Shown here one piece after another: positions 17,887-32,833 of a DNA stretch of 37,727 bases; the stretch's first letter is position 1; each line of letters begins with the position of its first letter. The notes under the pieces were generated by a model. That model worked only from the letters and a program-made list of their open reading frames with translations. It ran no database searches and was not told the DNA's origin. A program made the position numbers and the translations under genes. The stretch spans positions 1 to 37,727 of the forward strand of contig CALFCX010000106.1 of assembly GCA_937950635.1 (NCBI GenBank). Reading direction: 5' to 3'. The DNA is from an uncultured bacterium (GTDB lineage Bacteria; Margulisbacteria; WOR-1; JAKLHX01).

Positions 17887-17947
17887 GGTGCGTCCGAAAC
17901 CTTTCCGAACTCTCTCGCTAATTATACCTAACACTATTCATGGCTGC
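17887..17947 (+). repeat. left copy of the ~60-bp inverted repeat flanking the cargo (inner arm Q of a recombinase-type site)
   Basis: GGTGCGTCCGAAACCTTTCCGAACTCTCTCGCTAATTATACCTAAC (46 nt, 17887-17932) is identical to the reverse complement of 29842-29887. Similarity continues with one mismatch and one indel through ATTCATGGCTGC. Confidence 0.85.
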
Positions 17948-17993
17948 AAGAAGAGAAATCTCGGAAGGTTGTAGCCGAGATAATGCCGGGTGA

Positions 17994-18037
17994 TTAGCCC
18001 GCTTTTTCTCCCCCACACCCCCGAAAAAGCGGGCTAA
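17994..18037 (-). terminator. strong hairpin downstream of the last cargo gene (15-bp stem)
   Basis: TTAGCCCGCTTTTTC (17994-18008) pairs perfectly with GAAAAAGCGGGCTAA (18023-18037) around a C-rich loop. It lies 12 nt beyond the stop of the 130-aa gene. There is no clean U-tract on the minus strand. Confidence 0.5.
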
Positions 18038-18049
18038 ATAAAATTTATA

Positions 18050-18442: not shown

Positions 18443-18454
18443 ACGATTTCCCTC

Positions 18455-19405
18455 CTACACATTGAAATCTATTATCTCAAACGCATTCGTCTTTTTCTGG
18501 CCCATATGTTCCACAGTTACCATCTCATTCCGAAACGGTTTTCTCTTCCAATATCTGAAGAACTCATCTGCTCCTTTAAATATTGAGAATATCCTGTTAA
18601 AAGTCTCCCCAGATCTTTTCATTATTTGCGGTATTTCCTTAAACTCAAACGGAAACACATCAAAGAGGCCAGGATTTATTATCCTTACTGCTATTTTGTT
18701 CTTTATATAGATATCGCCATTTATATGCCTGTTTATTTGCGAAAATGAAGTTGTTAACTCAAGGCACTGCATAAATATGCTCATCATGTTCTTTCTGTTA
18801 AAGTCGCCTTTTAGCTGTCCGCTATAGCCTAAGTCGCAAGCTATTACCCTTTTTACACCAGGTATCTTTGCCGCAACAGTTATCGGGCAATTTTCCCTGA
18901 TTCCACCGTCAGCAAGAGCTGCTACTTTGCCATTGATCTTCATCTTTTTGGGCTTAAATATGACAGGGAACGATATTGATGCTTCAAGGGCTTCCGAAAG
19001 AAGCATATTCTTGTCATAGCCGAACACTATTAGCTTTCCCGTATTAAGGTCAGTCGTAGTGATATATGCCGGTTTCTTAAGATCCTTGAATGTCTTGCCG
19101 GTAAAGCCACCCTCTTTTGCAATGTGTTTTATTGCTTCCTTTGACTCGAACATTCCGGCTCTTGAGAAAATATCTACTGATAACAGCTGCGGCCATATAT
19201 GTTTTTTGACAAAGTGAAGCGATATTTCCTTAACCTTCTGCGGATCGTCATAGAGCCCGAGAAGGACGGCAAATACTGCACCTATAGAGGTTCCAATAAA
19301 GACATCAGGAATATATCCGCGGGAATATAATTCTTCGGCCATTGAGATGTGTGCTGCGCCTTTGACGAAACCGCCTGACAGGACGAGGGCAAGCTTGTTA
19401 TGCAT
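18455..19405 (-). CDS. patatin-like phospholipase
   Basis: SGGFVKG oxyanion/Gly-rich loop, GTSIG nucleophile elbow (Ser about residue 40) and a downstream LADGGIREN (DGG catalytic Asp) motif. Confidence 0.85.
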   Translation of the reverse strand: MHNKLALVLSGGFVKGAAHISMAEELYSRGYIPDVFIGTSIGAVFAVLLGLYDDPQKVKEISLHFVKKHIWPQLLSVDIFSRAGMFESKEAIKHIAKEGGFTGKTFKDLKKPAYITTTDLNTGKLIVFGYDKNMLLSEALEASISFPVIFKPKKMKINGKVAALADGGIRENCPITVAAKIPGVKRVIACDLGYSGQLKGDFNRKNMMSIFMQCLELTTSFSQINRHINGDIYIKNKIAVRIINPGLFDVFPFEFKEIPQIMKRSGETFNRIFSIFKGADEFFRYWKRKPFRNEMVTVEHMGQKKTNAFEIIDFNV

Positions 19406-19856
19406 TCCTAACTACCCGCAATATCTTGTCTTCCGGTTTTACATTTTCATTTAATTCAGCCAATTGCTTTAACGAGATATATATTTCTCCGGCTTTGGTT
19501 TGCTTCCGATGCTTTAAAGAAATCCACGGTCTTATTCCGTCACCGTTGTAAATCTCATCAAATTCACCATCATCGTTTATTCTAAGAACGAGCAATAACT
19601 CATACTCCCCGTTTATTTCGACTCCTTTGCCTTGGGTCGTTTTTATTTGGATTTTTCTACCATTAATTTCGCCATCATATCTGGGGTGAGAATTCTTAAA
19701 GAGTTTAATTCCATATTTTTCAGCAGCATAAACTTCTCCAAGGCTACCAACCATGTGCCCATCTGGAGTAAATGATCTATTTGGATATTTTTTACGCAAT
19801 TCAGATACAATTGAATATATCTCTCTTATAAGAGTCGACACGCCATTGTTTTTCAA
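19398..19856 (-). CDS. 152-aa hypothetical protein, possible minimal PD-(D/E)xK-like fold
   Basis: FTPDGHMVGSLGEVYAAEKYGIKL ... YDGEINGRKIQIKTTQGKG follows a pattern I recall from a small conserved family of unknown function (possibly annotated DUF6998; I cannot verify that here). It overlaps the patatin gene by 8 nt. Confidence 0.55.
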   Translation of the reverse strand: MKNNGVSTLIREIYSIVSELRKKYPNRSFTPDGHMVGSLGEVYAAEKYGIKLFKNSHPRYDGEINGRKIQIKTTQGKGVEINGEYELLLVLRINDDGEFDEIYNGDGIRPWISLKHRKQTKAGEIYISLKQLAELNENVKPEDKILRVVRNA

Positions 19857-19860
19857 GGTA

Positions 19861-20865
19861 TTATCCAGCGTTTTCTTTTTTCCGAGTTCTGCCCCAGTTA
19901 ATTTTCCTCATACGAGTCATTATTTCCTCAACTAAAGGCTTAAGATTTTTCAAGATATTATCCAAGTCGTCCGAATCTATCTGGTTTGGGACCAAATCTA
20001 TTTGGGAATATACCTTTGTCCACGATTTGCCCCACTTGTCGGTATATTTAAACTCGAGGCCTTGGTCATTCAATGCTCTTTTTGCAAGATACATCTGCCT
20101 TTTTATTTTGTTTGCGCGTTTACGTGTCCTCTTATCCTTAAGCCATCCTTTGCCCCATTCGAGATGAAATCCAATTTCGCACGGTTTTGTTATACTACCC
20201 CTTTTTCTTTTTCTCAAATGGACTTCAAAATGAAGACGAGAATTTCCGTCAATCTCCTTGAAGCTTATTAAATGGGCTCTCTTTTGCCATATATCAAGCT
20301 TATTACCCAATTCAGAAGATATGATCTTATCTTCAATTGCATCAATCAGTTGTTTTTTATCGTATTTCTTTCTAATCCGAATACTTATGGGCCTTGCTTC
20401 TTTTTGTTCAATGCATCTTGCTTTCTTAGCGAATATAATTCCGATTGAATCTCCAAAATCACCAATATTTTTTAGCATGAGAGTCGCAGGCTCAATAAGC
20501 TTTTCCTTGAATTTAATAGGTAAAATGACATAAAATCGCACTTTAATTGCGCGATTTTCCAAGAATTGCGAAAAATCTGTCAAATGCAGATTTGCCGCTT
20601 TTGAAATATTATCGAGAAAATCATATCCGTTTTCCTGAAGCATAGAGATATATGCAATCAATTGGCCTACTGCATGTCCTACGGAAGCAATTCTCTTAGC
20701 ATATTTGCCTTCGGCAACATAAAAGCTCTTTTCATCTCTGTTATATGCAAGAAGATCAAGCTTCCCACCAGCGAACCTAAATTCACTGCTTGCAAACACA
20801 CATTTCTTCTTCCTTTCAAAGAAATTCTTGCCTGGATAATTAAGCTGTTGATCTTCTATTCCCAT
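19861..20865 (-). CDS. 334-aa hypothetical protein with an N-terminal PD-(D/E)xK nuclease-like motif
   Basis: GGKLDLLAYNRDEKSFYVAEGKYAKR fits D-x(n)-E-x-K. The C-terminal half is highly basic. GGAGGG lies upstream of the ATG, and a 4-nt gap separates it from the next gene. Confidence 0.55.
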   Translation of the reverse strand: MGIEDQQLNYPGKNFFERKKKCVFASSEFRFAGGKLDLLAYNRDEKSFYVAEGKYAKRIASVGHAVGQLIAYISMLQENGYDFLDNISKAANLHLTDFSQFLENRAIKVRFYVILPIKFKEKLIEPATLMLKNIGDFGDSIGIIFAKKARCIEQKEARPISIRIRKKYDKKQLIDAIEDKIISSELGNKLDIWQKRAHLISFKEIDGNSRLHFEVHLRKRKRGSITKPCEIGFHLEWGKGWLKDKRTRKRANKIKRQMYLAKRALNDQGLEFKYTDKWGKSWTKVYSQIDLVPNQIDSDDLDNILKNLKPLVEEIMTRMRKINWGRTRKKENAG

Positions 20866-20884
20866 TTATAAGTTCCCTCCATTT

Positions 20885-23644
20885 CTATTTCACCAAATAC
20901 CCCTTAAAACTATAATCTCCAATTTCTCCCAATAAGTTGACGATCATATTAATCATCTCTTTGTGTTCCTGTGCTTTGGGCTTTACAGCATCAAGTATTT
21001 TTACAAAATAGTCATGAAACCCAAAATATAGGCGGTTATTCTTTTTGCTTGCCAGCAGCAGTTCATATGCTAGTTTCAAAGCTTCTTTTGGATGATCCCC
21101 GATATTCTTAATCAGGTATTCATAATATCCGTTTTGATGAAATACCTTCCCTTTAACTTTGATGCTTTTTTCAATAAGATCAAATAGCTCAACTATCGAT
21201 TCAGGAAGCCACTTCAGCCACTGAACGAATGAACCAACTTCTTCGTCATCAATCTTTTCTAATCGATATTTCCACAAAGCTTTAAGTTTTATCCAAACAT
21301 CTTTTTCCAACGGCTCCTTATCAAATGCTGATCCAATGAACCATATCGCATGACTTCGTACATCAGACGGTGCTTTTTCAAAGAATAATTGGACCAATCC
21401 ATTTTTATCATTGAGATTCTCAAGCCCTCTTATGAGCGCAATCATTATATGTTCGGCAAGCCGCATATTCTCTTGTTTTTCCGTATGTTTGCTTTCTTTT
21501 GTAATTGTTTCGACAGCTATTTTATAATTGCTCCTCAAGAGTTTAAACAAAATATCATAGAATCTGCTAAACAATACATATCCTTGCCAATCTGCCTCCC
21601 AGTACTGATATTTATTTTTGTCTGATGGAAACAATAGTCCTTTTTCAATGCTTTTCTTTATCCATTCCTGATCTAAATAGTAAAGATATTGAAAATATCT
21701 GCCGAATGTTGAGTGGACTGCTGGGCTCAATTCATTATTCATCCTGTTCTCAAGGAATGATTTAACATCACATTCATATATTTTTTCGCCTGGGGGAAAC
21801 GGGCCCTTGTCTTTTTCTGCTTCTTTATCCACTTTGATCCTTGCTACTCTAAGAGCATATAAAATAAGCGCTTCTAGGGCTTTCCCTCTGTTGCAATTGA
21901 TCGCTTCTGTTACGTAGTCAGTATTGCGATCATTCTTGTCAATTTCCGGATTTGGGTCCTTTTCGGCTATATGGAACAAGATGCTTTTTATTTTTGGTAA
22001 ATAAGTATCATCTATTACATGTTTATCAGTCCTAAGTGCCTCCCCGAGCAGATCAGCAATTGCGCCTTCTGTCCACGAAAAACGACCATAATCAAAACTG
22101 TCTTTCCTGTTAAGTTCAGGATCAACATCTTCTCTTTTTTGCATCAGTTCACATAACCTTAATACAGAATCCCATGAGAATGTTTTTCCTTCCCGCCATG
22201 CATCATGAAGTGCTCTAAGCAGATTTGATACATAAGCAGGATAAATGCCTTCTTCAGCGAATCTTTCTGCAATAGCAGCATATGGTTCCGGACTATCTTT
22301 AACAACATCACCAATTAACCTGGCGAGCCCCTCCGGTGTAGGCTGCCAATGTCCTCCTGAAGGTTTGAATTCATTCTTTAGATAATCGACCAGCTCATTC
22401 GCACTCAGTCGTTTTATCTCTTCAATAGTCATCGGGCTTGTCGGGCCTTCCCAGCTTGTGATCCCTTCTTGTTTATCAGATCTATTCCATGCATCTATTT
22501 CGTCTTTGTACTTTTCAACTATTGAATGATATTCACTTAAATTATTATCATTCGATATAACTGATGATATTTTGTATAATCGCGCTATTATCCAGCGATC
22601 AATAAACTTCGCGGTCGTTTTCCATCTAGCACCATGCTGGATCATCTTTAATATTTTCTTCTTTGCTTCTAAAGGCAGTTTTTCAAAATATTCAGAATAT
22701 AAGATTTCGTATTCAGGCAGCTTTTCATATGATTCAAATAATTCCTCATTTGTCAGTATTTGCTCATAAAGCTCTGTAATATTGCATTGCCTTGATACAT
22801 ATATCGCAATTCTTTTATATATCGAATATTTCATGGATAGGTACTTTTCGATAACCTCAAGAGCCATATTGCTATCTTTGTTATGATATTTGATGAGCGT
22901 ATCTCGCAATATATCCACAAAGATGTTTTCAGCGTCATCAAAAGAGTAATTTTGTTTACTATCACCAATAGATGGCCGCCATATGCTCGAAACATCATCC
23001 TGATATCCGTTTTTGCTTATTTGTATCGCTTCATTAAGCCGCTTTTCAATTATTTCAAGCACTTTACCAGGATTATGCTCAACAAGAACCGGCAGATATT
23101 TGGCCATAAGTTCTTCTTTGTAATAATAGAAATCAAACCTCAGACTTGTATTAATGTGCTTCTTTTTGCTTGGCTTACTTAGGATATCAAACAATGCAAA
23201 AGCCGATTCATAATCTTTTGCTTCAATAAACTTGCCAAGCAGATCAATCGAATATTTATCCCCAATATCAAACACGCTTGAATCGAACCACTTGTCAATG
23301 TTCGGCAGTAACTGCTTTGCATATTCTGATGGTAATTTAAGCGTTATCTGAAAGCATAGATCCAAAGCATTCCAATTTTCATTTGTATTAAGATTCTGTA
23401 ATAACTCGACCACCTTGCCTGGCACTTTATCTGCAACTTTTAGAATGTAATAGCCAGGCCACCATGGTGGAGATTGCACCGTGTTTTCGTCTTTGTCTTT
23501 TATTTTTATTGGCACTTTTGACAACATATTATTTTCATTGAGAAAATCAAACCATCCTGGCTTGTCCAAGTGCAAAAAGAAATACTGAAAAGCTGTTGGC
23601 TTTTGCAGTAGCTTAACAATCTCTTTCTTGTTTACTGTATTCAT
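20885..23644 (-). CDS. 919-aa all-helical-looking protein of unknown function (no catalytic motif found by eye)
   Basis: This is a long uninterrupted ORF whose start overlaps the stop of the 226-aa gene (ATGA). I saw no Walker A, HExxH, DEAD or PD-(D/E)xK motif. Its W/Y/K/E-rich composition looks like helical repeats. Confidence 0.65.
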   Translation of the reverse strand: MNTVNKKEIVKLLQKPTAFQYFFLHLDKPGWFDFLNENNMLSKVPIKIKDKDENTVQSPPWWPGYYILKVADKVPGKVVELLQNLNTNENWNALDLCFQITLKLPSEYAKQLLPNIDKWFDSSVFDIGDKYSIDLLGKFIEAKDYESAFALFDILSKPSKKKHINTSLRFDFYYYKEELMAKYLPVLVEHNPGKVLEIIEKRLNEAIQISKNGYQDDVSSIWRPSIGDSKQNYSFDDAENIFVDILRDTLIKYHNKDSNMALEVIEKYLSMKYSIYKRIAIYVSRQCNITELYEQILTNEELFESYEKLPEYEILYSEYFEKLPLEAKKKILKMIQHGARWKTTAKFIDRWIIARLYKISSVISNDNNLSEYHSIVEKYKDEIDAWNRSDKQEGITSWEGPTSPMTIEEIKRLSANELVDYLKNEFKPSGGHWQPTPEGLARLIGDVVKDSPEPYAAIAERFAEEGIYPAYVSNLLRALHDAWREGKTFSWDSVLRLCELMQKREDVDPELNRKDSFDYGRFSWTEGAIADLLGEALRTDKHVIDDTYLPKIKSILFHIAEKDPNPEIDKNDRNTDYVTEAINCNRGKALEALILYALRVARIKVDKEAEKDKGPFPPGEKIYECDVKSFLENRMNNELSPAVHSTFGRYFQYLYYLDQEWIKKSIEKGLLFPSDKNKYQYWEADWQGYVLFSRFYDILFKLLRSNYKIAVETITKESKHTEKQENMRLAEHIMIALIRGLENLNDKNGLVQLFFEKAPSDVRSHAIWFIGSAFDKEPLEKDVWIKLKALWKYRLEKIDDEEVGSFVQWLKWLPESIVELFDLIEKSIKVKGKVFHQNGYYEYLIKNIGDHPKEALKLAYELLLASKKNNRLYFGFHDYFVKILDAVKPKAQEHKEMINMIVNLLGEIGDYSFKGYLVK

Positions 23645-24321
23645 TCTTTAGGTGGTTGCTCCATAGCTAACAGTGGATCAATTTTCGGAATATCGTCTTC
23701 AACTAATTTATGTAATAACGAAGCTAGACAATCCTTGAACTCTTGCCATTTTTCAGCAAATATATTGCTATCAATATCATTTTGTCTATGGTGAACGCAT
23801 TTGCCAACAAAATAGTCATTGCACTTAGCTAGTTTTTGCGAATATCCTTCGATAACTTCTTTTGGATAGCCGGGGTGCCTCGTTTCATATAAAGATATGA
23901 GTTTCTGTTTTAAATTTATTTTCCCTCTTAGCAGCAGTCGCTTAAGCGCATCATATTTTCTTTGAACAAACGATACAACATCGTTTTTCTCTTCCTTTTC
24001 ATCAGAAAGAGGCATTCCTTGAAGCATAGCGTTGAATTCCTTATCAAGTGCCACCATGGCTTTTTCTTCTGCACTTGTGAATTTTGTTTCATTGATAGTA
24101 TCCTCACACAATACAGCGATTAATTCCCTGGCAGAATGTGCGGCATGGGAATATCTCTCAGGATTGTGATCATCTTTTAAAACTCTCAACGCAGCAAGAA
24201 AGCTATCGAATTGTTTGGTATTTATTTTGCGAAGCGATTCCAATATCGCTTTTTCCTGTGAATCACAATCCCTATCTTCATTAAATTCCGGCCATTGTAC
24301 GACCAATAACTCTTCCATCAT
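23641..24321 (-). CDS. 226-aa helical protein of unknown function (weak HEPN-like R-x5-H)
   Basis: Its start overlaps the hsdS stop (ATGA). The ERYSHAAHSAREL segment contains an R-x5-H spacing compatible with HEPN, which is weak evidence. Confidence 0.6.
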   Translation of the reverse strand: MMEELLVVQWPEFNEDRDCDSQEKAILESLRKINTKQFDSFLAALRVLKDDHNPERYSHAAHSARELIAVLCEDTINETKFTSAEEKAMVALDKEFNAMLQGMPLSDEKEEKNDVVSFVQRKYDALKRLLLRGKINLKQKLISLYETRHPGYPKEVIEGYSQKLAKCNDYFVGKCVHHRQNDIDSNIFAEKWQEFKDCLASLLHKLVEDDIPKIDPLLAMEQPPKE

Positions 24322-25691
24322 TCTCCCTCAAACGCCTCTCTAAGCACCGCCTGCATAAGCTGCTCGGACTGATCTTTGCAATCTTTTATCTGAACTTCTA
24401 ATTCATCTATCATAGCCATAATTTTATCCACCCTATCCACAATTGCCTTTTGTTCATCAAGAGGAGGCAGTGGAATCAAGAAATTGGACAACAAATTTAA
24501 ATTCAACCCTTTATATGCAATACCTCTCAAGTTTTTACCAATTTCATAATTAAAGAATGGAGAAGTTAAAACATTAAGGATGTAGTGATTCATATCTCTA
24601 TCATGCAATACAATCAAGGAAACCTCTCTCGCAATATTGAAGCCCTTATGTTCTTTCGTAGTAATTGCACAACCTCCTAATGTTCCTCGAACATTTAATA
24701 ATATCTCACCTCCCGACAAGATTGTTCTTGAATATTTCGTAGATATATTATTAGATACTTTTCTTATTGAAGCTCCATCTATATATCTAAAACGGACATC
24801 GCTACATCTCAAAGCATAAACGCCATCATGTTTCGGTTCATCACCCATTTTTACTATTCCGTATGTGATAGGTCTTCGTAAGTCGACAAGTTGATTTAAC
24901 TTGCACCACACCCACCCCTCCGGCAATTCAAAAGGTTTCTCATCATCAGAAATTGGCGGAAGCGACTTATCTTTCTTGATCTTGCCTCCTTTGATCAATC
25001 GTTCCTTCTCCGCCTTTATCTTTTCAAGCAATTTAGATGCGTGATTTTCACCACTGATAAGATCAAGATGTTCTTTGCGCCATTTAGCGGTCAGTTTGCC
25101 TTCGATGGCTTCTTGGAGGATGGATTGGCGTAAATTATTTAAATGCAACAACTGATTAGATATGTCCGAATCTATGTCTGATACAATTGATTGAATTTTC
25201 GCAACTCTCTCAACTAATTGAGTTTGTTTTTGATAACCTATAGCAGGAATATCTATCTCGCACAAATTGTCATAGCTCAATGCATTTCTTACGCCGCCTT
25301 TATTTCCATACCAGTTTATGAGGTGATGGCCAAAGTCGCTTTTAAGATATAAGAAAAGAAAATCGGGATTTAAATCTGCCTTTGTCTTAAATACAACGTA
25401 AGCAGGACTAACGCACCCTTTCAAACCAGAGTTATTGAACCCTATAGATCCAACATTGATTCTATAAGGATTATATGCAAAACAGCCTTTGTCTATAGCA
25501 ATATAATTTGAGACATCCTTACTCGTTCTTTTCCCTGTAACAACAATTCCTTCTGTATTTGTTACACCATAAACGAGGTTGTAAGAAGAAGACTTTTTAT
25601 CTGCGACAGATTCTTTAACTGGCTCAATAAAGTCGCCTAATTTTGTTGTTTTAAATGTTATTCTGGTTCTTTTCCATTCAACCATTACCAA
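24318..25691 (-). CDS. hsdS: type I restriction-modification specificity subunit HsdS
   Basis: Two target-recognition halves each end in a conserved helix (LNNLRQSILQEAIEGKL and SEQLMQAVLREAFEGE), with the IPLPPLDEQKAIV motif. It overlaps hsdM by 14 nt. Confidence 0.88.
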   Translation of the reverse strand: MVMVEWKRTRITFKTTKLGDFIEPVKESVADKKSSSYNLVYGVTNTEGIVVTGKRTSKDVSNYIAIDKGCFAYNPYRINVGSIGFNNSGLKGCVSPAYVVFKTKADLNPDFLFLYLKSDFGHHLINWYGNKGGVRNALSYDNLCEIDIPAIGYQKQTQLVERVAKIQSIVSDIDSDISNQLLHLNNLRQSILQEAIEGKLTAKWRKEHLDLISGENHASKLLEKIKAEKERLIKGGKIKKDKSLPPISDDEKPFELPEGWVWCKLNQLVDLRRPITYGIVKMGDEPKHDGVYALRCSDVRFRYIDGASIRKVSNNISTKYSRTILSGGEILLNVRGTLGGCAITTKEHKGFNIAREVSLIVLHDRDMNHYILNVLTSPFFNYEIGKNLRGIAYKGLNLNLLSNFLIPLPPLDEQKAIVDRVDKIMAMIDELEVQIKDCKDQSEQLMQAVLREAFEGE

Positions 25692-27111
25692 GTTCCCTTT
25701 TCAACTTATCAAGCAGCTCATCGCTTTTGCGGAACGAATCATGGATCATATTTACCAGTTCAACACTCGAATAGAATTTGTCTTCTTCAGGAATATGAGG
25801 ATTTTTAATATCAAGATTATATCCGTTTGAAATAATTGAATCGATTGAGACTTTCCATGCCTGCTCATTTTCTTTTCGTTTCTTCCACCATTTCTTAAGG
25901 TCTTCGAATTCGCTTTTCTGGATCGGTTTTGTTTTGCTGTATGCTTTAACGCCTTCCGGTAGTTTATGCTCCCAATACCAGATTTCTTTTGTCGGTTTTC
26001 CTTTCTCGAAGAATAATAGATTAGTCGCCACGCTTGCGTACGGTTGAAAAACAGAATTAGGAAGGCGTATTATCGTATGAACATTGCATGTTTCAAGAAA
26101 ATGCTGTCTTATGCGTTGTTTTACCCCATCGCCTGTCAATGAGCCGTCAGGAAGCACTATACCCGCACGCCCACCGTCTTTTAGATAACGGATCATAAGC
26201 AAGAGAAATAGATCGGCGCTTTCTGTTGTGCGGAAGTTCACGGGATAGTTTGTTTCAACGCCATCGGTAACTGAAGCACCAAACGGAGGATTTGTCAGGA
26301 TAACATCAACTCTGTCTTTTTGTCCGATTGAAGTATATTCGCGGTTTAAGCTATCCGTATAATCGATATTGGGGACTTCAATATCGTGCAATATCAGATT
26401 TGTCACGCATAACATGAACGGAAGCGGCTTTAGCTCCATTCCATGGATAGTTTTTTCCAATGTCTTTAGGTCTTTTACCCCCTTGATGTCCTGCTTGCGA
26501 ATATTCTCGATTGCGCTTGTCAAAAAACCTCCGGTACCGCATGCAGGATCAAGAATTATCTCTCCTAAACGAGGATTAATCATTTCTGTAATAAATTCCG
26601 TGATCGCGCGAGGTGTATAAAATTCTCCATAATTTCCCGCGCTTTGAAGGTCGCGCAGGATGGTCTCATAGATATCGCCAAAAACATGCCGGTCTTCAGA
26701 ACTATTAAAATCAATCTGATTAAGCTCATTCAGCACCTGTCGGATAATGGTTCCGTTTTTCATGTAGTTATTAGTGCCGTCAAATATCTCGCGAATGATT
26801 AAGGCTCTTTTGCCCCCAGAACTTATGTCGAGATTCTTCAATTGAGGAATGAGTTTGCCGTCAACAAACTCTTTAAGTTCTTCTCCGGTCATCCCCTCAT
26901 CATCAGCGGCCCAATTACGCCATTGCAGTTTCTTTGGAATCGGGGAAACGTATTTATCATTTAGCAATTCAAGCTCTTTATCTTTGTCATCTAATATTTT
27001 TAAGCTTATCAACCAGCCAAGCTGTTCGATTCTTTGTGCATCGCCTGACACGCCGGGATCTTTGCGCATGATATTCTGAAGTGTCCTTATTATGTTTCCA
27101 ATATTTTTCAT
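25678..27111 (-). CDS. hsdM: type I restriction-modification DNA methyltransferase HsdM (N6-adenine)
   Basis: HsdM N-terminal domain (LISLKILDDKD), GEFYTPR, AdoMet motif DPACGTGGFL and the catalytic NPPFG. Confidence 0.92.
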   Translation of the reverse strand: MKNIGNIIRTLQNIMRKDPGVSGDAQRIEQLGWLISLKILDDKDKELELLNDKYVSPIPKKLQWRNWAADDEGMTGEELKEFVDGKLIPQLKNLDISSGGKRALIIREIFDGTNNYMKNGTIIRQVLNELNQIDFNSSEDRHVFGDIYETILRDLQSAGNYGEFYTPRAITEFITEMINPRLGEIILDPACGTGGFLTSAIENIRKQDIKGVKDLKTLEKTIHGMELKPLPFMLCVTNLILHDIEVPNIDYTDSLNREYTSIGQKDRVDVILTNPPFGASVTDGVETNYPVNFRTTESADLFLLLMIRYLKDGGRAGIVLPDGSLTGDGVKQRIRQHFLETCNVHTIIRLPNSVFQPYASVATNLLFFEKGKPTKEIWYWEHKLPEGVKAYSKTKPIQKSEFEDLKKWWKKRKENEQAWKVSIDSIISNGYNLDIKNPHIPEEDKFYSSVELVNMIHDSFRKSDELLDKLKRELGNG

Positions 27112-27119
27112 TTATTATC

Positions 27120-29525
27120 TTACGCTACCGCGTAAAGCTCCTTTTCAAGCTCTTCGACCGCGCTCAAGTATTGATCTCTGCCTCCAAAGGATTGGACTAT
27201 CTCTGAAGGCGTTCCCATATCCTTGAACGGCTCGATCCTTAATATTGAAAGGTCCTCAATGTTCTCAATCCCTATCTCAGCGTATTTATCCAGTAATGCT
27301 TCCAGGACCTTTTTTGCTTTATCTCCGTATTTGGTAAAATAATTCCTTTTTTTAACGTTCTCGGCACGCTCGCGTCTGGTTAAAGCGGGCTTGTCCCATG
27401 CAATATGGCATATCAAATCAAACACATCCAAATTTTTCTTCACATCATCCATCAGATTATCAAGGATAATGCCTTCCGCTTCAAGTTCGTCAATTATCGC
27501 CTTTTTCTTCTTAGCGTTATTCCATTGCGTCAGGAATTCATTCATAGTCCGATATTCCCTCAATATGCTGTTTTTTGTGTACTCTTTCAGAGTTTCCGTC
27601 ATCAAATCTCCATTGGAATTCAGATATTGCACTCTCTCATTTAGTACTGAAACATCCACTCCTGCCACATATACCTTCGGCCGCGGTTCGTCCGTTATAT
27701 TTCCACCTTGAATTATTTGAGGCGTTTCTGATTGCTCCGGAATACTCGTTTTATCAAAATCTATAGGTTGGTTTGTTTCCGGATCAATTACATTTTGGCT
27801 TTCATTCGGCAGAATATCTTCATTTGTTAACAGGTCTTCCCCTTTAACTTTTCTAATCATCACAGGGTCGCCATCAAATGCCGGATCAGCAAACAAATCC
27901 GTAACATTCCTGAAATCCATGATCGTAAAGAATGTTTTATCGTATTCCTCGTTTATTCTGGTTCCACGCCCGATGATCTGCTTGAACTCCGTCATTGATT
28001 TGATGTTTGAGTCAAGAACTATCAGTTTGCAGGTTTGAGCATCAACTCCGGTAGTCATCAACTTAGATGTTGTCGCAATAACAGGATATTTTTCTTCGGG
28101 ATTTATGAAGTTATCAACTTCACGCTTGCCTTCGCTGTCATCCCCGGTTATTCTCATAACATATTTACGGTTTTCAAGCGCTATATCGGCATTTTCAATA
28201 ACAAGTGCTTGTCTCATACGTTCTGCATGCTCGATATCAACGCAAAATATGATCGTTTTATCGTATCTGTCAGTTTTCTTCAGGAATTCCGAGACTTTTT
28301 TCGCGACTGCTTTTGTCCGCTCGTCTATGACCAGAGTCCTATCAAAATCATTCGTGTTATAAATCCTGTCTTCAATCTCTTTGCCATCTTTATCTGTCAT
28401 GCCTGCATCGGGCCTCCATCCCTCAAGATCAGTATTCAACCCCACACGGATGACCTTATAAGGAGCAAGAAATCCGTCATCGATCCCCTGTTTAAGAGAA
28501 TATGTATAAATTGGCTCGCCAAAATACTGGATATTCGATATTTCTTTTGTCTCACGAGGCGTTGCCGTGAGACCTATCTGTGTAGCAGATTTGAAATACT
28601 CAAGGATAGCTCTCCACGCACTGTCAGCATCAGCGCTGCCTCTGTGGCATTCATCAACAACCACAAGATCAAAGAAATCCGGGCTGAATTCTTTGTAAGC
28701 GTCTTTATCTTCATTATAATCGGTGAGGCCCTGATACAGCGCCATATAGACTTCAAATGCTTTGTCAATTTTCTTCTTTTTAATAACCGTCATAAGCTTT
28801 TTGAAATATTTGAAGTCTCCTCGTTTTGTCTGGTCAATAAGGACATTCCTATCAGCAAGAAATAATATTCGCTTTTTCTTTCCGTTTTTCCATAGTCGAT
28901 AGATGATCTGAAAGGCAGTATATGTTTTGCCTGTTCCGGTGGCCATTACCAGAAGTATTCGGTTTTTGCCTTTTGCTATAGCTTCAACAGTCCTATTAAT
29001 GGCTATTTGCTGATAATACCGCGGAGCACGTTTTGATCCGTCATAAAAATAATCGAATGAAGCGTACTTTTCCTGCTCTGTTGTCTCGATTTTCTTGTAT
29101 TTCTTATAGCTGTTCCATAGAACTTCAGGTGAAGGAAACTCATCAAGATTTATCTGCTTTTCACCTCCGGCAATAAGACCCGATCTGTCATGTATCAGAA
29201 AACCGTCTCCATTGGAGCTGATAGCAACTGGAATATCAAGTATTTCCGCATATTTCAGTCCTTGCTGCATTCCGGAACCGATTGAATGATTATTGTCTTT
29301 TGCCTCGATAACAGCAATGGGGATGTTTGGTTTTAGATATAGGATGAAATCGGCCCTTTTCCGTTCGCCTCTGGCAGTCTTGTCACCTTTTACAAAAATA
29401 CGTCCGTCTGTAAAGAAGACTTCTTCTCTGATTTGCTTTTCAAGATTCCATCCTGATTTTATTAGCGCAGGAAGTATATATTTTGTGCAAATATCTCGCT
29501 CGGATAAGTCTTTTTTGTTTGTCAT
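27120..29525 (-). CDS. hsdR: type I restriction endonuclease subunit HsdR
   Basis: N-terminal nuclease motif (RADFILY...VIEAKD), helicase Walker A (MATGTGKTYTA), DECH box (VVDECHRG), motifs LTATP and GRGTR, and a C-terminal helical domain. Confidence 0.92.
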   Translation of the reverse strand: MTNKKDLSERDICTKYILPALIKSGWNLEKQIREEVFFTDGRIFVKGDKTARGERKRADFILYLKPNIPIAVIEAKDNNHSIGSGMQQGLKYAEILDIPVAISSNGDGFLIHDRSGLIAGGEKQINLDEFPSPEVLWNSYKKYKKIETTEQEKYASFDYFYDGSKRAPRYYQQIAINRTVEAIAKGKNRILLVMATGTGKTYTAFQIIYRLWKNGKKKRILFLADRNVLIDQTKRGDFKYFKKLMTVIKKKKIDKAFEVYMALYQGLTDYNEDKDAYKEFSPDFFDLVVVDECHRGSADADSAWRAILEYFKSATQIGLTATPRETKEISNIQYFGEPIYTYSLKQGIDDGFLAPYKVIRVGLNTDLEGWRPDAGMTDKDGKEIEDRIYNTNDFDRTLVIDERTKAVAKKVSEFLKKTDRYDKTIIFCVDIEHAERMRQALVIENADIALENRKYVMRITGDDSEGKREVDNFINPEEKYPVIATTSKLMTTGVDAQTCKLIVLDSNIKSMTEFKQIIGRGTRINEEYDKTFFTIMDFRNVTDLFADPAFDGDPVMIRKVKGEDLLTNEDILPNESQNVIDPETNQPIDFDKTSIPEQSETPQIIQGGNITDEPRPKVYVAGVDVSVLNERVQYLNSNGDLMTETLKEYTKNSILREYRTMNEFLTQWNNAKKKKAIIDELEAEGIILDNLMDDVKKNLDVFDLICHIAWDKPALTRRERAENVKKRNYFTKYGDKAKKVLEALLDKYAEIGIENIEDLSILRIEPFKDMGTPSEIVQSFGGRDQYLSAVEELEKELYAVA

Positions 29526-29701
29526 TTTATGTTTGACCTGTTCTTAATAAATATTTCCAGGTCTTTTGTCATAATCCGCCATTGTCCTATTTTTGTTGCC
29601 CTTATTTCTTTTCTGGCAATAAGATCTCTAACCCATTCTTCAGTAATGTCCAATTTATCCGCCACATCTTTCACTGTCATATATTTCTTTATGTCGATCA
29701 T
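29522..29701 (-). CDS. 59-aa excisionase-family helix-turn-helix protein (candidate RDF or controller protein)
   Basis: It is not in the ORF track because it is under 60 aa. My translation is MIDIKKYMTVKDVADKLDITEEWVRDLIARKEIRATKIGQWRIMTKDLEIFIKNRSNIK. The pattern (T)VKDVA...VRDLI..(K)EI.A.KIG.QWRI is the classic excisionase/MerR-like HTH. The stop TGA overlaps the hsdR ATG, and AAGGAG lies upstream. Confidence 0.75.
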   Translation of the reverse strand: MIDIKKYMTVKDVADKLDITEEWVRDLIARKEIRATKIGQWRIMTKDLEIFIKNRSNIK

Positions 29702-29728
29702 AGTCCTTTTGACTCCTTATTAATCCAT

Positions 29729-29757
29729 ATTCTATCACTCTTGCAAACAACATTCAA
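29729..29757 (-). promoter_or_regulatory. candidate sigma-70 promoter of the cargo operon (TTGAAT-17 nt-TAGAAT on the minus strand)
   Basis: The reverse complement of 29752-29757 is TTGAAT and of 29729-29734 is TAGAAT, with an exact 17-nt spacer. It lies about 28 nt upstream of the HTH start codon. Confidence 0.5.
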
Positions 29758-29773
29758 AACATGAGGCTTTCCT

Positions 29774-29817
29774 GGCCGGCGCAATTATTAGAGTGGGGGC
29801 TAAGGTACGCGCCGGCC
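29774..29817. other. GC-rich hairpin (9-bp perfect stem GGCCGGCGC / GCGCCGGCC, 26-nt loop)
   Basis: Read directly from the sequence. It sits between the inverted-repeat site and the operon promoter and could act as an insulator or terminator. Confidence 0.45.
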
Positions 29818-29827
29818 ATATATGGAA

Positions 29828-29887
29828 GCAGCCATGAATGCGTTAGGTATAATTAGCGAGAGAGTTCGGAAAGGTTTCGGACGCACC
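29828..29887 (-). repeat. right (inverted) copy of the ~60-bp repeat flanking the cargo
   Basis: The reverse complement of 29842-29887 equals 17887-17932 exactly, and the extension to 29828 has minor differences. Confidence 0.85.
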
Positions 29888-30099
29888 AGTTTGATTTCAT
29901 TGCGAACTAATGTTGTTGGGCGGCTTTGAGCCGTGCTTGCATGGCGAAAAGCCGCCTCATTGTTATTATCAGAAGATTTTATTTCCGCCGATGTCGCCGA
30001 GCTTGTCGAGGCGGCTGAGGCGGCCTCAGCGCTCTCGGAATACAATAATGACTTCTATTGCCTCCGTCGAATAAATGACACTTTCCGATGTGCCTTTTC
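29886..30099 (-). pseudogene. inverted duplicate of the last ~215 nt of the serine recombinase gene (3' fragment only)
   Basis: The reverse complement of 29886-30047 is identical (162 nt by my reading) to 32427-32588. A further ~52 nt (30048-30099) match 32374-32426 with several mismatches and two indels. Track ORF 29800..30045 repeats the recombinase tail YSESAEAASAASTSSATSAEIKSSDNNNEAAFRHASTAQSRPTTLVRNEIKL. Confidence 0.85.
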
Positions 30100-30160
30100 A
30101 AATACAAGCTGAATAAGAAATGCTTTCTACGAGGTTTGCTTCTCCGGGTTTTCCATTGTA

Positions 30161-30415
30161 GCACTTTTCTGCCTTTTCCCTGTCAAGGTCGCTTGCGTTC
30201 GCGCCTCCTCGACGCGCCTTCGTAGCAGCTCGGAGGCGCTCATGCACGCTCCCTGCTCCAGTCGGCAGAGTCGTTGCTCAGCCTCCTTCCGCCCCTACGC
30301 TCAGCCTCGCTGCGTCAAACATTGCGTTATCCAAAAAGGCACTGTTGATTTACTGCCTGCGGCAGTAATAATCCTTGCTCGGCTTCGCTTCGGGTGACAG
30401 GGGGCAGAAAAGTGC
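30161..30415 (+). repeat. GC-rich structured element closed by a 21-bp inverted repeat (possible ncRNA or DNA structure)
   Basis: GCACTTTTCTGCC-TTTT-CCCTGTCA (30161-30185) pairs with TGACAGGGGGCAGAAAAGTGC (30395-30415) apart from a 4-nt bulge. Internal stems are GCGCCTCC/GGAGGCGC (30201-30239) and TACTGCC-TGC-GGCAGTA (30351-30367). GCTCAGCCTC occurs as a direct repeat. Confidence 0.55.
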
Positions 30416-30442
30416 TCCTTGGTACCCAAGGAGGTGTCGCTT

Positions 30443-30976
30443 ATGTCTTTTCATCGTTTGGTTGGTGTTGTCGGGTCCCGTTCTCTTCCTGTCTCTTTTG
30501 CTCCGCTTGTTGATCGTGTTGTGTCCTCGTTCCTTTCCCTCGGTTACTGCATTGCTTCCGGTGGTGCCGTGGGCGCTGATTCGTTTGCTTTGTCTGCTCT
30601 TCTTCGTTCTGGTTCTCCCTCCCGCGGTGTTATATATTCGGCGTGGTCTTCGGTTTCGGGCTTTTCTGCTTCGGTGCGGCCTGATGTTGAGCGTTTTGTT
30701 TCTTGCGGTGGTCGGGTTATTTGGGGTTCTGCGTCTCCTTCCTCTCCTCGTTCTGTTGCTGTTCCTGCTCTTCTCGGCCGCAATAGGCGTTTGGTTTCTG
30801 CCTGCTCGGTCATTGTTGCTTTCCTTCACGGCCCTTCCCGCGGTTCTCTCCACACCATCCGTCAGGCTGTTTCCCGCGACATTCCGGTTGTCGTGTTCCT
30901 TTGCGGCGGTGGTGCTTCATTGCCCGATGAGCTTGAGTCCAAGTGCCGCGTCATTCACAGACAGGAGGTGATTTAG
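30443..30976 (+). CDS. short DprA/Smf-like Rossmann-fold (SLOG-type) protein, encoded by an A-depleted gene
   Basis: AAGGAGG lies 8 nt upstream of the ATG at 30443. VVGSRSLP...IASGGAVGADSFALSALL and GRNRRLVSACSVIVAFLHGPSRGSLHTIRQAVSRDIPVVVF parallel the DprA core motifs (GxR, SGxAxGxD, RNR, SGS). The track ORF 30419..30976 is in the same frame. Confidence 0.6.
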   Translation: MSFHRLVGVVGSRSLPVSFAPLVDRVVSSFLSLGYCIASGGAVGADSFALSALLRSGSPSRGVIYSAWSSVSGFSASVRPDVERFVSCGGRVIWGSASPSSPRSVAVPALLGRNRRLVSACSVIVAFLHGPSRGSLHTIRQAVSRDIPVVVFLCGGGASLPDELESKCRVIHRQEVI

Positions 30977-30978
30977 TC

Positions 30979-31170
30979 ATGCCTATGTATCCGATCTATC
31001 CGTGCTGTTATTGTCCTGTCGCTGACCCTGATAATCCCTGCAGTAATTCAGTTAAGGTTTCCTGCGACAGATTTCTTTGCTACATAGAAAAACTGTGCAG
31101 GTTTAAGTCTCATAGCGTTTTGATCAAAGAGTTAAAGGACTTAATAGATATAAAGAAAGGAGTTAGATAA
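30979..31170 (+). CDS. 63-aa cysteine-rich protein (7 Cys), function unknown
   Basis: AGGAGG lies 10 nt upstream of the ATG at 30979. The sequence is MPMYPIYPCCYCPVADPDNPCSNSVKVSCDRFLCYIEKLC.... It ends 1 nt before the recombinase start codon. Confidence 0.5.
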   Translation: MPMYPIYPCCYCPVADPDNPCSNSVKVSCDRFLCYIEKLCRFKSHSVLIKELKDLIDIKKGVR

Positions 31171-31171
31171 C

Positions 31172-32632
31172 ATGAAAGCAGCAATTTATACTAGAATTTC
31201 CACTGATAATCAAGCTGAGGTTGAGTTCAATTCCTGCGAGACGCAGGCGACCAAAATAAGATCATTCATATCAAGTCAGAATGATCTCGAGGTTTTCAAG
31301 GTCTATTCCGATCAAGGGTATTCCGGCGCAAGTATAGAACGTCCGTCATTACAGGACATGCTTGTTGATATCCAGAATGGAAAGGTTAATCTGGTCATCT
31401 CATACAAGATTGACAGGCTCACTAGATCGCCTAAAGACTTTTATCAGCTTATTGAGCTGTTTGAAAAGCACAATGTCAGTTTTATCTCAGTCACAGAACG
31501 ATTCGATACTTCCACGCCTTCCGGAAGGCTTCTGAGGAACATCATGCTTACATTCGCACAATTTGAGCGCGAGCTTATTAGTGAAAGAATCAGGGACAAG
31601 ATGGCAGAGCGTGCTAAAAAAGGCATGTGGAACAGCGGGAATACTCCGCTGGGCTACAGAAGAGACAATAAAAAGCTTGTTATCGAATCCAAAGAAGCGG
31701 AAATCGTCAGGACTATCTATGACGAATATCTTGCCAGTCATTCCGTTGCAAGAGTTTATGACAAGCTTAAATCGATAAAGATGTTCGGCAGAAAAGGACT
31801 TCCGTTAATCAAAACCAACATAACAAAGATACTTCACAACATTCTCTATACAGGCAAGATCGAATATAAAGGCAAGATATACAAGGCCATACACGAGCCG
31901 ATCATTTCAGATATATTGTTTGAGGCCGTCCAGTCATTACCAAAAGAAGAATATCAGAAACGAAGCAAGTTATTTATGTACACTTTGTTCCCCGGACTGA
32001 TTCATTGCAAAGAGTGCGGATCGATAATGAGCTCGGTATTCACAAACAAGATCAGGAAAGGCAAGCGAGTCAGATATTTCTATTACCGCTGTAACGGTCT
32101 CGCTAAACGTGATCTGTCATACTGCTCGACAAGATATGTCAGCTGCGACCGGCTCGATGCTTTTATCATTGATAATCTCGATAAAATCGCTAAGAACCAG
32201 CAATACCTTGATAGTTTGATATTCACGCTCAATTATTCCCCGCAAGATATGACGGAGGGGTTTAAACCTAACGGGGATACTTCAACGTATTCTTCTGAAA
32301 AGCTGCGAGAGATACTGGAAAGCATAGTCGATGCTTCAAAGCTTAGGGGCAAATCCGAGAAGCGGGAAATCGTGAAAAGGCACATCGGAAAGGTCATTTA
32401 TTCGAAGGAGACAATAGAAGTCAAAATATTGTATTCCGAGAGCGCTGAGGCCGCCTCAGCCGCCTCGACAAGCTCGGCGACATCGGCGGAAATAAAATCT
32501 TCTGATAATAACAATGAGGCGGCTTTTCGCCATGCAAGCACGGCTCAAAGCCGCCCAACAACATTAGTTCGCAATGAAATCAAACTGGACCTGGGGGGAC
32601 TCGAACCCCCAACCCCTAGCATGCCATGCTAG
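31172..32632 (+). CDS. large serine recombinase (resolvase domain + recombinase domain + zinc ribbon)
   Basis: MKAAIYTRISTDNQ carries the catalytic Ser, with YKIDRLTRS and the FAQFERELISERI E-helix. The recombinase domain shows PLGY, and the zinc ribbon has CKECGS...YYRCNG. The last 16 codons (DLGGLEPPTPSMPC) are antisense tRNA sequence, so the C-terminus is created by the junction. Confidence 0.92.
   Translation: MKAAIYTRISTDNQAEVEFNSCETQATKIRSFISSQNDLEVFKVYSDQGYSGASIERPSLQDMLVDIQNGKVNLVISYKIDRLTRSPKDFYQLIELFEKHNVSFISVTERFDTSTPSGRLLRNIMLTFAQFERELISERIRDKMAERAKKGMWNSGNTPLGYRRDNKKLVIESKEAEIVRTIYDEYLASHSVARVYDKLKSIKMFGRKGLPLIKTNITKILHNILYTGKIEYKGKIYKAIHEPIISDILFEAVQSLPKEEYQKRSKLFMYTLFPGLIHCKECGSIMSSVFTNKIRKGKRVRYFYYRCNGLAKRDLSYCSTRYVSCDRLDAFIIDNLDKIAKNQQYLDSLIFTLNYSPQDMTEGFKPNGDTSTYSSEKLREILESIVDASKLRGKSEKREIVKRHIGKVIYSKETIEVKILYSESAEAASAASTSSATSAEIKSSDNNNEAAFRHASTAQSRPTTLVRNEIKLDLGGLEPPTPSMPC
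32582..32603 (+). repeat. right copy of the 22-bp direct repeat (contains the tRNA-Ala 3' end), attR-like
   Basis: It is identical to 17650-17671. Confidence 0.85.
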
Positions 32633-32658
32633 TGCTCTACCAATTGAGCCACAGGCCC
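32586..32658 (-). tRNA. tRNA-Ala (anticodon GGC)
   Basis: The reverse complement folds by hand as GGGCCTG-TG-GCTC-AATTGGTA-GAGC-A-CTAGC-AUGGCAU-GCTAG-GGGTT-GGGGG-TTCGAGT-CCCCC-CAGGTCC-A. It has U33, anticodon GGC, A37, the G3:U70 alanine identity pair and the GTTCGA T-loop. CCA is not encoded. Confidence 0.9.
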
Positions 32659-32833
32659 ATCACAGTTCTATTTTATCACAACTCATGATGATGAGTTTTT
32701 CTACACAACGGCTTACGGCACGCTCTCTTCGTTCGCTACAGCTAACGGCTCCGGAGCTGCCTGCCCGCTACGCTTTGCGAAGCATGGCAGGCGGATAAGC
32801 CGTAGGCCCGAAGGACCGTGCTGTTAGCCATAA

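Follow-up and report, generated by a model that had tools for sequence, protein, structure and literature searches.

The locus

The DNA analysed here is contig CALFCX010000106.1 of an uncultured bacterium of the WOR-1 lineage (Margulisbacteria), 37,727 nucleotides (nt) long and called the window below. It carries an island integrated at a tRNA gene, and at one end of that island lie a multi-branched hairpin, a gene for a DprA-like protein whose sense strand is nearly free of adenine (A), a short open reading frame (ORF) for a Cys-rich protein and the gene of a large serine recombinase (LSR), with an HTH_17 gene as a further neighbour. The A-poor gene and the hairpin in front of it are the subject of this report, and the coordinates of all features are collected in Table 1.

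Table 1. Features of the window, with the strand and the basis of each assignment.
Feature	Position	Strand	Basis or remark
A-avoiding gene, 177-amino-acid (aa) single-domain DprA-like (SLOG/Rossmann) protein	30443-30976	+	Pfam PF02481, AlphaFold (AF2) model, Foldseek, composition
Hydrophobic alternative-frame ORF, 198 aa	30375-30971	+	By-product of A scarcity, not a gene; no Pfam family
Antisense ORFs	30350-30853 and 30544-30813	-	By-products of A scarcity, not genes
Multi-branch fold-back hairpin, proposed single-strand promoter on the template strand	30160-30416	-	Covariation, folding energy
Hairpin stem P1	30160-30173/30403-30416
TTTT bulge of the hairpin	30174-30177
Hairpin stem P2	30178-30185/30395-30402
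Short hairpin partly occluding the ribosome-binding site (AAGGAGG, 30428-30434)	30417-30442	+	Sequence; covaries among loci
Extended -10, TGCTACAAT	30155-30163	-	At the open base of the hairpin
TTGACA within stem P2 (+ strand CTGTCAAGG)	30181-30186	-	Possible -35, role uncertain
63-aa Cys-rich partner (PCCYC...C...C motif)	30979-31170	+	Ordinary composition
Large serine recombinase	31172-32632	+	Resolvase, Recombinase and Zn_ribbon_recom domains; CcrB/XisF-like
Island	17672-32581		14.9 kb, at tRNA-Ala
attL, 22-nt direct repeat of the tRNA-Ala 3' end	17650-17671	+	Perfect; attR 32582-32603
tRNA-Ala(GGC), integration target	32585-32659	-	ARAGORN, Rfam
Module inverted repeat, left arm	29886-30100		Recombinase 3' end and end of the island, copied in inverse orientation
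Module inverted repeat, right arm	32373-32588		Ends in the tRNA-Ala 3' end
Cargo inverted repeat, left arm	17886-17948		Right arm 29826-29888, abuts the module repeat

Base composition and reading frames of the gene

By exact count the DprA-like ORF contains 37 A in 534 nt (6.9%), beside 27.5% C, 27.0% G and 38.6% T; its first 400 nt hold 17 A (4.3%) and three of its 178 codons end in A. These values match the hand counts of an earlier note made from the letters of this DNA (about 37 A in 534, 17 in 400, three A-ending codons). Outside the DprA-like region the lowest A content of any 400-nt stretch of the 37.7-kb sequence is 16%. In four-fold codon families A ends 1 of 128 codons of the ORF compared to 414 of 1577 (26%) in eight other genes of the window (binomial P=5e-16). 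Residues without an A-free codon (K, N, E, Q, I, M, T, Y, D and H) make up 16% of the protein and 44-68% of its neighbours; among those that the earlier note had called almost absent (K, N, E, Q, I, M, T and Y), isoleucine with 8 residues is not rare. The same note drew positions 30161 to 30976 as one A-poor module. This holds for the gene, but the first 282 nt (30161-30442, 15.6% A) lie outside it and constitute a separate structured element. The opinion that the segment is not ordinary high-GC foreign DNA was correct.

The extra open frames exist because the gene is nearly without A. The four overlapping ORFs reported earlier were found at their coordinates and had rightly been attributed to A scarcity; however, the number of stops across the ORF is 0, 1, 7, 1, 5 and 4 in the six frames, hence merely three frames are nearly stop-free and not four or more as was said. 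Long ORFs in three frames could also be taken as genuine multi-frame coding, in the 198-aa plus-strand frame or in the antisense ORFs, a reading that the earlier note had left standing and that comparison with homologues refutes. The alternative sense frames are 36-39% identical between homologues versus 66% for the real frame, the better antisense frame (57%) shares its third positions with the real one, the alternative frames contain 0-19 stops in homologues (0-8 in the sense frames), third positions vary freely among T, C and G, and a family match is missing. The probability of multi-frame coding is practically nil. Selection against off-frame stops, which was prompted by the tolerance of CA but not of TA, GA and AA, was also tried and ruled out: 8 of the 37 residual A's lie in such stops and homologues carry 1-8 of them.

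Avoidance of adenine across the family

More than 230 homologues with 62-84% identity share the composition poor in K, N, E and T and rich in S, R and V. For comparison of whole loci one genome per species was taken, giving 26 loci, with several copies in some genomes; the named loci all belong to Margulisiibacteriota, WOR-1 or Saganbacteria, except for one truncated copy at a contig end which is labelled Patescibacteria. The A content of the 26 genes ranges from 4.8 to 14.5%, that of the flanks from 26 to 35%, and in one locus none of the 175 codons ends in A. Over 333 kb of related loci, windows with less than 10% A are confined to the DprA-like gene, and windows with less than 10% T do not occur. 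As the homologues are A-depleted too, the gene is not the isolated oddity that had been considered. All the sequences come from metagenomes or metagenome-assembled genomes; the many separate assemblies and independent sources behind them exclude an artefact of assembly.

At four-fold sites the difference between homologues is 0.53, close to the saturation value of 0.63, and A still stands at 5%. Because synonymous sites are near saturation among T, C and G and A nevertheless remains at about 5%, the bias is, as judged from this sequence comparison, kept by ongoing selection at the nucleotide level. It sets in sharply at the start codon: A amounts to 18-24% in the 60 nt preceding the start codon and to 1.5% at +30 to +60, and it recovers within the last 30-45 nt, where the ribosome-binding site of the next gene lies. 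The residual A's are found at the conserved residues D46, N114 and Q141, mostly in the contexts CAG, CAT and TAT, with GA and AA the rarest contexts overall. At synonymous third positions of 23 loci the depletion is at least 16-fold for NGA, about 10-fold for NTA and no more than 2-3-fold for NCA, and CGA has no use in 264 codons. Such context dependence suggests that a motif is avoided rather than every A, and may mean a dinucleotide target, either GA, UA and AA in RNA or TC, TA and TT in the template; it is explained by none of the mechanisms considered here.

It can be said that the anomaly is real, ancient and selected, and undescribed as far as literature searches reach: the sole return on adenine-free or adenine-depleted genes was a eukaryotic signal-sequence case. 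A tblastn search of annotated plasmids and phages (PLSDB and INPHARED) gave no match, possibly due to the low-complexity filter.

The extreme clade

A search of 1.8 billion cluster representatives yielded 291 relatives, which form a continuum of A-requiring residues from up to 54% down to 0.7-1%. At the lower end stands locus L035, whose ORF contains 2 A in 615 nt (0.3%), one in a conserved Asp codon and one in the stop codon. It begins with a GTG start behind a GGGGGTG ribosome-binding site, and is A-free from -74 to +52 beyond the stop, including a terminator hairpin with its T-run. The ORF of L032 has 7 A in 774 nt. In this extreme clade G+T reaches 75%, the proteins consist almost solely of F, L, S, C, W, P, R, V, A and G, and the A-avoided zone, to judge from the sequence, equals the transcription unit. 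The neighbouring genes are of ordinary composition and encode ArdA, ArdC-N, Rad52-like, GmrSD, PemK and PIN proteins; the DprA-like gene of this distant clade heads arrays with ArdA, ArdC-N and the Rad52-like gene. Neighbours of this kind are typical of the leading regions of conjugative elements (PMC11541004).

Three further observations concern these relatives. Upstream of the L035 gene lies an array of GCAAAA/GGCAA-type repeats (1-100 and 236-335) in which 55% of the bases are A and 4% are T, a composition that mirrors that of the gene on the same strand. A 5-kb contig, L036, holds two DprA-like modules in opposite orientation, 1510-2190 (+) and 4116-4724 (-), with 22.8% and 14.8% A, one of which is followed by an LSR. 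Protein P0135 (582 aa) seems to consist of an A-free DprA-like domain and, by fusion or readthrough, a second domain whose composition is ordinary.

The earlier note had proposed a strand-biased mutational history, for instance in a single-stranded intermediate. Damage associated with transcription or single-stranded DNA (ssDNA), or A-mutating copying as in diversity-generating retroelements, would fit the G+T richness of the extreme clade, which resembles deamination skews, as well as the confinement of the bias to one transcription unit. However, C is not depleted (24-28%), and C deaminates far faster than A. To keep 0.3-5% A at saturated sites, the rate of A loss would have to exceed that of A gain more than 100-fold, and the bias is held while synonymous sites turn over. 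A survives exactly at the conserved D46, N114 and Q141, and the GTG start and the A-free ribosome-binding site are functional substitutions. Moreover, the bias begins at the start codon (Margulisiibacteriota) or at the predicted transcription start (extreme clade) and spares the co-transcribed, co-oriented genes downstream. A mutational origin is hence extremely unlikely. Mutagenesis of the retroelement type was rejected in addition, as the bias spans the whole transcription unit and not a variable repeat; no reverse transcriptase was seen among the Pfam-assigned genes of the window and loci, although no search was aimed at it.

The encoded protein

The protein matches PF02481 (DNA_processg_A) with 41 bits at a cut-off of 29.6, covering profile positions 45-186 alone; the NCBIfam equivalog for true DprA scored 26.6, far below its cut-off of 191. 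The AlphaFold model has a predicted local distance difference test score (pLDDT) of 91.5, and the best Foldseek matches are ShosA (8zva) and H. pylori DprA (4ljk) with template modelling (TM) scores of 0.72-0.74. Further matches are 5mll, 3maj and 3uqz, among them the DprA proteins of R. palustris and S. pneumoniae; the probability is 1.00 and the query TM score 0.69-0.74 overall. Across 20 homologues G11, R13, R113 and N114 are invariant and S12 nearly so. The GSR and RN(R) motifs align with GTR and RNR of ShosA and DprA, where the arginines have a role in ssDNA binding (PMC12961424). The flanking domains of canonical DprA (N-terminal SAM-like, C-terminal winged helix) are missing, the 177 aa comparing to 215-380 aa of the structural targets. 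PADLOC gave merely weak ShosA/PsyrA matches (E about 5e-7), and membership in ShosTA/PsyrTA was rejected because no phosphoribosyltransferase (PRTase) toxin occurs in any locus listing. Since the sense strand is kept nearly A-free, the protein is built mainly from the ten amino acids with A-free codons (F, L, S, C, W, P, R, V, A and G), and it is still modelled confidently in the DprA fold.

The fold-back hairpin and its proposed promoter elements

In all Margulisiibacteriota loci an element of 140-260 nt is placed between the left inverted repeat and the DprA-like gene, comprising a long closing stem, variable inner hairpins and conserved C-rich junctions. Compensatory changes were noted in 24 of 30 consensus pairs (17 loci). 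Unlike in typical RNA, G:U pairs (7) are not in excess over A:C (7). The folding z-score is -4.1 as RNA and -4.9 as minus-strand DNA; folded as DNA, the minus strand is more stable than the plus strand in 25 of the 26 loci, by 4.2 kcal/mol on average (P=1e-5). The C-rich junction motifs CCCUCCUCCAGUC and GCCUCCUUCCGGCCCUCCGC (window 30250-30310), conserved in all Margulisiibacteriota loci, resemble an anti-ribosome-binding site on the plus strand and are GGAGG-rich on the minus strand.

The minus strand carries an extended -10 element where the base of the hairpin opens. In 25 of 27 Margulisiibacteriota loci a stem of 13 bp or more has TGnTAnnnT at its base, and at the equivalent position of the extreme clade stand TGGTATAAT (L035) and TGGTATGCT (L032). 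On the folded minus strand the -10 would be on the non-template side and the arm adjoining the ORF would serve as template, with a transcription start predicted from promoter geometry at about 30424-30432, just 5' of the ribosome-binding site. The TTGACA of stem P2 is separated from the -10 by 20 nt in the linear duplex of the window, or by about 15-16 bp with the bulge looped out, and by merely 8 nt in L035 and L032. The stem motif CTGTCAAGG / CCTTGACAG (30178-30188, 30395-30402) is conserved between clades that otherwise share little leader sequence, occurring in L035 at about 596-606 and 654-664 and also in L032; it may be a protein-binding or nicking site instead of a -35. A promoter scan found no conventional plus-strand promoter upstream of the hairpin, the lone plus-strand match inside the leader lies in a stretch unique to the copy of the window, and the leftward cargo operon has its own promoter at 29757-29729.

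The type of promoter changes with the composition of the gene. Ordinary relatives (L038/L039 and L040, 24-25% A) have plus-strand TTGACA-N17-TATAAT promoters and no hairpin, in intermediates (the L036 copies and L037, 15-23% A) a hairpin is present but its -10 is degenerate, and strongly A-poor genes have the hairpin with an invariant extended -10. This correlation, taken from a small sample of related loci, is the most direct evidence tying A-avoidance to the fold-back element, and the coupling of the two is, at the level of sequence comparison, well supported.

Another way to read the hairpin is as an RNA leader, a riboregulator or protein-binding structure transcribed from an upstream duplex promoter, with the minus-strand motifs incidental or directed leftward and the A-avoidance unrelated to strandedness. 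The strong covariation would suit it, as would the three CCUCC motifs of the leader, which are complementary to the ribosome-binding site, the small hairpin occluding that site and a weak TTGCTC-N15-17-TAGCAT readable on the plus strand upstream. But a transcript started from the TAGCAT -10 would begin inside P1 and lose the covarying 5' arm, the scan detected no plus-strand promoter upstream apart from the one leader match in a window-only stretch, and neither the missing G:U excess nor the better DNA fold of the minus strand in 25 of 26 loci is what an RNA would lead one to expect. A known RNA family was rejected as well, since an Rfam scan of the leader gave nothing at the gathering threshold and chance-level matches alone at E up to 10. 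An RNA leader is accordingly considered improbable.

Effect on the template strand and proposed mechanism

An A-free mRNA has a T-free, A-rich template without A:T pairing. The template ssDNA of the window gene has a predicted minimum free energy (MFE) of -33 kcal/mol, versus -56 +/- 12 for other windows and -73 for a GC-matched balanced sequence; for L035 the value is -34 versus -69 and -91. The MFE of the mRNA is ordinary, because G:U pairs remain available. According to these folding calculations, a T-free template fits, without being proof of either, a strand kept open for polymerase or one kept free of ssDNA proteins or enzymes acting on T. The pressure is specific to the DprA-like gene, as the co-transcribed downstream genes and the neighbouring anti-restriction genes are not A-free, and it may point to avoidance of binding by the protein itself.

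The region is an entry and recombination module of a family of integrative islands, made of hairpin, DprA-like, Cys-rich and integrase genes. The best explanation of its structure is a single-strand promoter like Frpo on the minus strand which drives the operon of these three genes; on our analysis its probability falls just short of one half. Frpo hairpins rebuild promoters on the transferred template strand and give an early burst that conversion to duplex silences (PMC9849209), and prolonging the single-stranded window is selected for (bioRxiv 10.64898/2026.01.09.698686). In the present case the minus strand would become single-stranded during conjugative mobilisation, transformation, as a rolling-circle intermediate or as lagging-strand template, and the hairpin would then fold and present the extended -10 at the open base beside a duplex stem. 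Host RNA polymerase would take the gene-side arm as template, so that the DprA-like, Cys-rich and integrase genes would be transcribed as at Frpo, until conversion to duplex abolished the hairpin and switched the operon off. The T-free template would stay an open, usable single strand, or would escape binding or attack directed at T in ssDNA, possibly including that of the DprA-like protein. The single-stranded stage, the promoter function of the hairpin and the reason for avoiding A are all inferred. That the family is written in a three-letter alphabet as an adaptation of 'first-in' genes read from ssDNA, or as an escape from attack on T in ssDNA or A in RNA, is a tentative proposal with rather less than an even chance. 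The single-stranded intermediate suggested earlier is in this sense supported as the setting of a fold-back promoter on the template strand, but not as a cause of mutation.

The cumulative GC skew of the whole window falls steadily to about 30-31 kb and is flat thereafter, in step with the switch in gene orientation. Should replication be the cause of the skew, the lagging-strand template of the module is its minus strand, and the hairpin strand would be exposed at each replication round.

A number of points weigh against a single-strand promoter. Neither a relaxase, nor an origin of transfer (oriT), nor a type IV secretion system, nor a replication gene is visible in the island or window, so the single-stranded stage is assumed; the distant clade, whose neighbours are like those of leading regions, yielded no oriT either. 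The downstream Cys-rich and recombinase genes, presumably of the same operon, are A-rich, and the ArdA/ArdC neighbours of the distant clade are ordinary in A, which means that template T is tolerated there. In the leading-region literature examined, including one composition analysis, no A-avoidance appears for the genes that Frpo drives on F-type plasmids. Leftward transcription from the extended -10 in duplex DNA is also conceivable, the hairpin with its CCUCC motifs could be an RNA leader instead, and the spacing of TTGACA, 20 nt in one clade and 8 in the other, makes a -35 role look doubtful. A low template structure as the sole aim would be better served by the loss of G or C, since the stronger G:C pairs, which are in fact retained, would then disappear. 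The context in which residual A's are most frequent, CAG, corresponds to template CTG, the E. coli primase site, and this speaks against avoidance of primase. Finally, the loci are mutually related, hence counts across them are not independent.

Two candidate reasons for losing A were set aside. Avoidance of primase sites is weakened by the frequency of template CTG, and a weak RNA:DNA hybrid as the aim finds no support in published nearest-neighbour values, as G and C are kept at 54-63%.

Possible attack on RNA or on duplex DNA

The earlier note had also considered selection against A-containing targets, be it by RNases or by m6A-dependent restriction, for which there is no specific support here. 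Part of this idea lives on as RNA-level immunity, in which an A-poor mRNA escapes adenine-directed attack and the protein is made during active defence; attackers could be RNases of the MazF, PemK, HigB and ToxN types, HEPN RNases, Csm6/Csx1, CmdT through ADP-ribosylation at GA, or deamination of A. The A-free zone of the extreme clade matches the transcript, from the ribosome-binding site through the start to the terminator, the elements lie among defence and toxin genes (HEPN_AbiV, PemK, PIN, R-M, i.e. restriction-modification), and the context-dependent depletion, with NGA and NTA far below NCA and with GA and AA rarest, suggests avoidance of a motif. However, no A-specific RNase is a constant partner, the Cys-rich ORF alone being one, and in the Margulisiibacteriota A does occur in the ribosome-binding site and start codon, at the 3' end and in the remainder of the operon. 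The hairpin, the minus-strand -10 and the ordinary promoters of ordinary relatives are left without explanation, and a signal in the transcript is indistinguishable by sequence from one in the template. RNA-level immunity is therefore regarded as a live rival, though an unlikely one.

The other part is avoidance of targets in duplex DNA. An A-free strand bars sites that need A on both strands, which applies to every Type I site, to paired Type III sites and to most Type II palindromes with A/T, and would so provide a segment proof against restriction or m6A-dependent cleavage. R-M cargo always lies next to the gene, of Type I in the window and of the Type III-like, MmeI-like and EcoRII/Dcm kinds in other loci, and H. 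pylori DprA is reported to counter restriction. Yet a cut anywhere in the element would be fatal and the rest of module and island is normal in A; Type I enzymes cut far from their sites, and GC-only sites remain possible. Nor would this reading account for the link to the hairpin or for a bias that sets in sharply with the start codon or the start of transcription. Duplex target avoidance is thus very unlikely.

The island, its cargo and its inverted repeats

The island has a GC content of 36-43%, as compared to 45-55% in the flanks, and housekeeping genes lie on both sides. The 3' end of the recombinase gene runs into the tRNA gene, so that the last 16 residues or so are encoded by the tRNA antisense strand. 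The Cys-rich ORF is conserved directly after the DprA-like gene in LSR-type as well as tyrosine-integrase-type loci. The proteins are 58-66 aa long with the pattern P-C-C-Y-C ... C ... C ... FL.YI..L ... LIKELK (e.g. L004, 6530-6721) and match none of the families in Pfam, NCBIfam or PADLOC; they may act as zinc-binding recombination directionality factors or as partners of the DprA-like protein. It had been asked whether such modules always accompany this recombinase family. The link is partial: the module does occur with LSRs, but the set of hairpin, A-poor gene and Cys-rich ORF was also found with tyrosine integrases, and the module in integrase-less contexts too.

The cargo comprises a patatin-like phospholipase, DUF6998, an HTH_17 excisionase-like gene and a Type I R-M system, the last of which is broken up by two genes at 20885-24321 (minus strand), one of 919 aa and Dsr1-like, the other of 226 aa. 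The 919-aa gene matches the PADLOC Dsr1 model with E=3e-63 and has no Pfam domain. The 226-aa gene matches a pPIWI-associated nuclease weakly, and both genes are inserted between hsdS and the rest of the island. Judged by gene order, the Type I R-M operon appears to carry an embedded second defence system.

Two inverted repeats divide the island. The module repeat (about 215 nt) contains 162 nt of 100% complementarity plus extensions of 31 and 20 nt, a design that recurs in loci L004, L006, L009, L018, L019 and L025. The cargo repeat (47-63 nt) contains 47 nt of 100% complementarity with an imperfect extension, and analogous pairs are present in L004, L006 and L018. The cargo (17886-29888) and module (29886-32588) repeats share a junction at a CCA/TGG core; this shared site combines sequence of the island-end arm with sequence of the arm at 17886. 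Within either arm of the module repeat lies a separate 18-bp hairpin (GGCGGCTTT...AAAGCCGCC), at 29919-29956 and 32518-32555, in the region coding for the recombinase C-terminus. Across genomes the modules abut genes of various tRNAs (Ala, Ile, Lys, Val, Met and Tyr), and at tRNA-Tyr the module is present in both orientations (L019 versus L025), which suggests inversion by the serine recombinase or fold-back pairing in a single-stranded form.

Comparison with known systems

The module is like the Frpo/ssi promoters of F and ColIb-P9 in having a stable hairpin upstream, the hairpin strand as template, promoter elements that the fold would present (PMC9849209) and the expected logic of being on as a single strand and off as a duplex. 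It differs in the multi-branched shape of a hairpin with the -10 at its open base, without sequence relation, and in belonging to a serine-recombinase island which integrates at a tRNA gene, has no visible transfer genes and includes the integrase in the operon. In common with the leading regions of F and ColIb-P9, the distant clade lies beside ArdA and ArdC, and the DprA-like product, like SSB and PsiB, would be a protein that handles ssDNA (PMC11541004); an A-free gene sets it apart from the leading-region genes in the literature examined. With DprA and ShosA/PsyrA the protein shares the Rossmann/SLOG fold (TM 0.72-0.74) and the GSR and RN(R) motifs, from which it departs as a single 175-aa domain without a PRTase neighbour, of weak similarity (E about 2e-5) and with a reduced amino-acid alphabet.

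Messenger RNAs without ACA survive MazF, which is the basis of the single-protein-production system. As in such MazF-resistant transcripts, a nucleotide pattern is avoided here over the whole coding sequence regardless of amino acids; there the pattern is a 3-nt motif, in the present family it is an entire base, and the amino-acid alphabet changes as a result. The adenine-depleted signal-sequence coding regions of vertebrate secretory mRNAs, known as ALREX (PMC2100149), also present an A-poor coding segment as a signal at the nucleic-acid level, but they concern eukaryotic nuclear export, extend over about 60-100 nt, are modestly depleted and have no link to DNA strandedness. SCCmec ccrAB and fdxN XisF are similar in the LSR with Resolvase, Recombinase and Zn-ribbon domains, the short direct repeats and the defence cargo. 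Unlike in LSR islands or invertible segments, two adjacent segments bracketed by inverted repeats share one junction, the tRNA targets are various and both orientations occur at tRNA-Tyr.

Significance

Were the proposed reading true, this would be the first natural protein-coding gene family found to dispense with one base, recurring across distant bacterial lineages, and it would offer a handle on the limits to expression from ssDNA at element entry, or on base-directed defence. Natural proteins of a ten-letter alphabet with a confident Rossmann-type fold bear on minimal-alphabet design and on the early code. Single-strand promoters would extend from model conjugative plasmids to the integrative defence islands of uncultivated phyla, and 'zygotic' control is suggested for the integrase as well. 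A compositional search key for entry modules in metagenomes would be given by long ORFs without A that follow a hairpin, and A-avoidance combined with a fold-back promoter would be a general, previously unrecognised signature of the entry genes of mobile elements in uncultivated bacteria.

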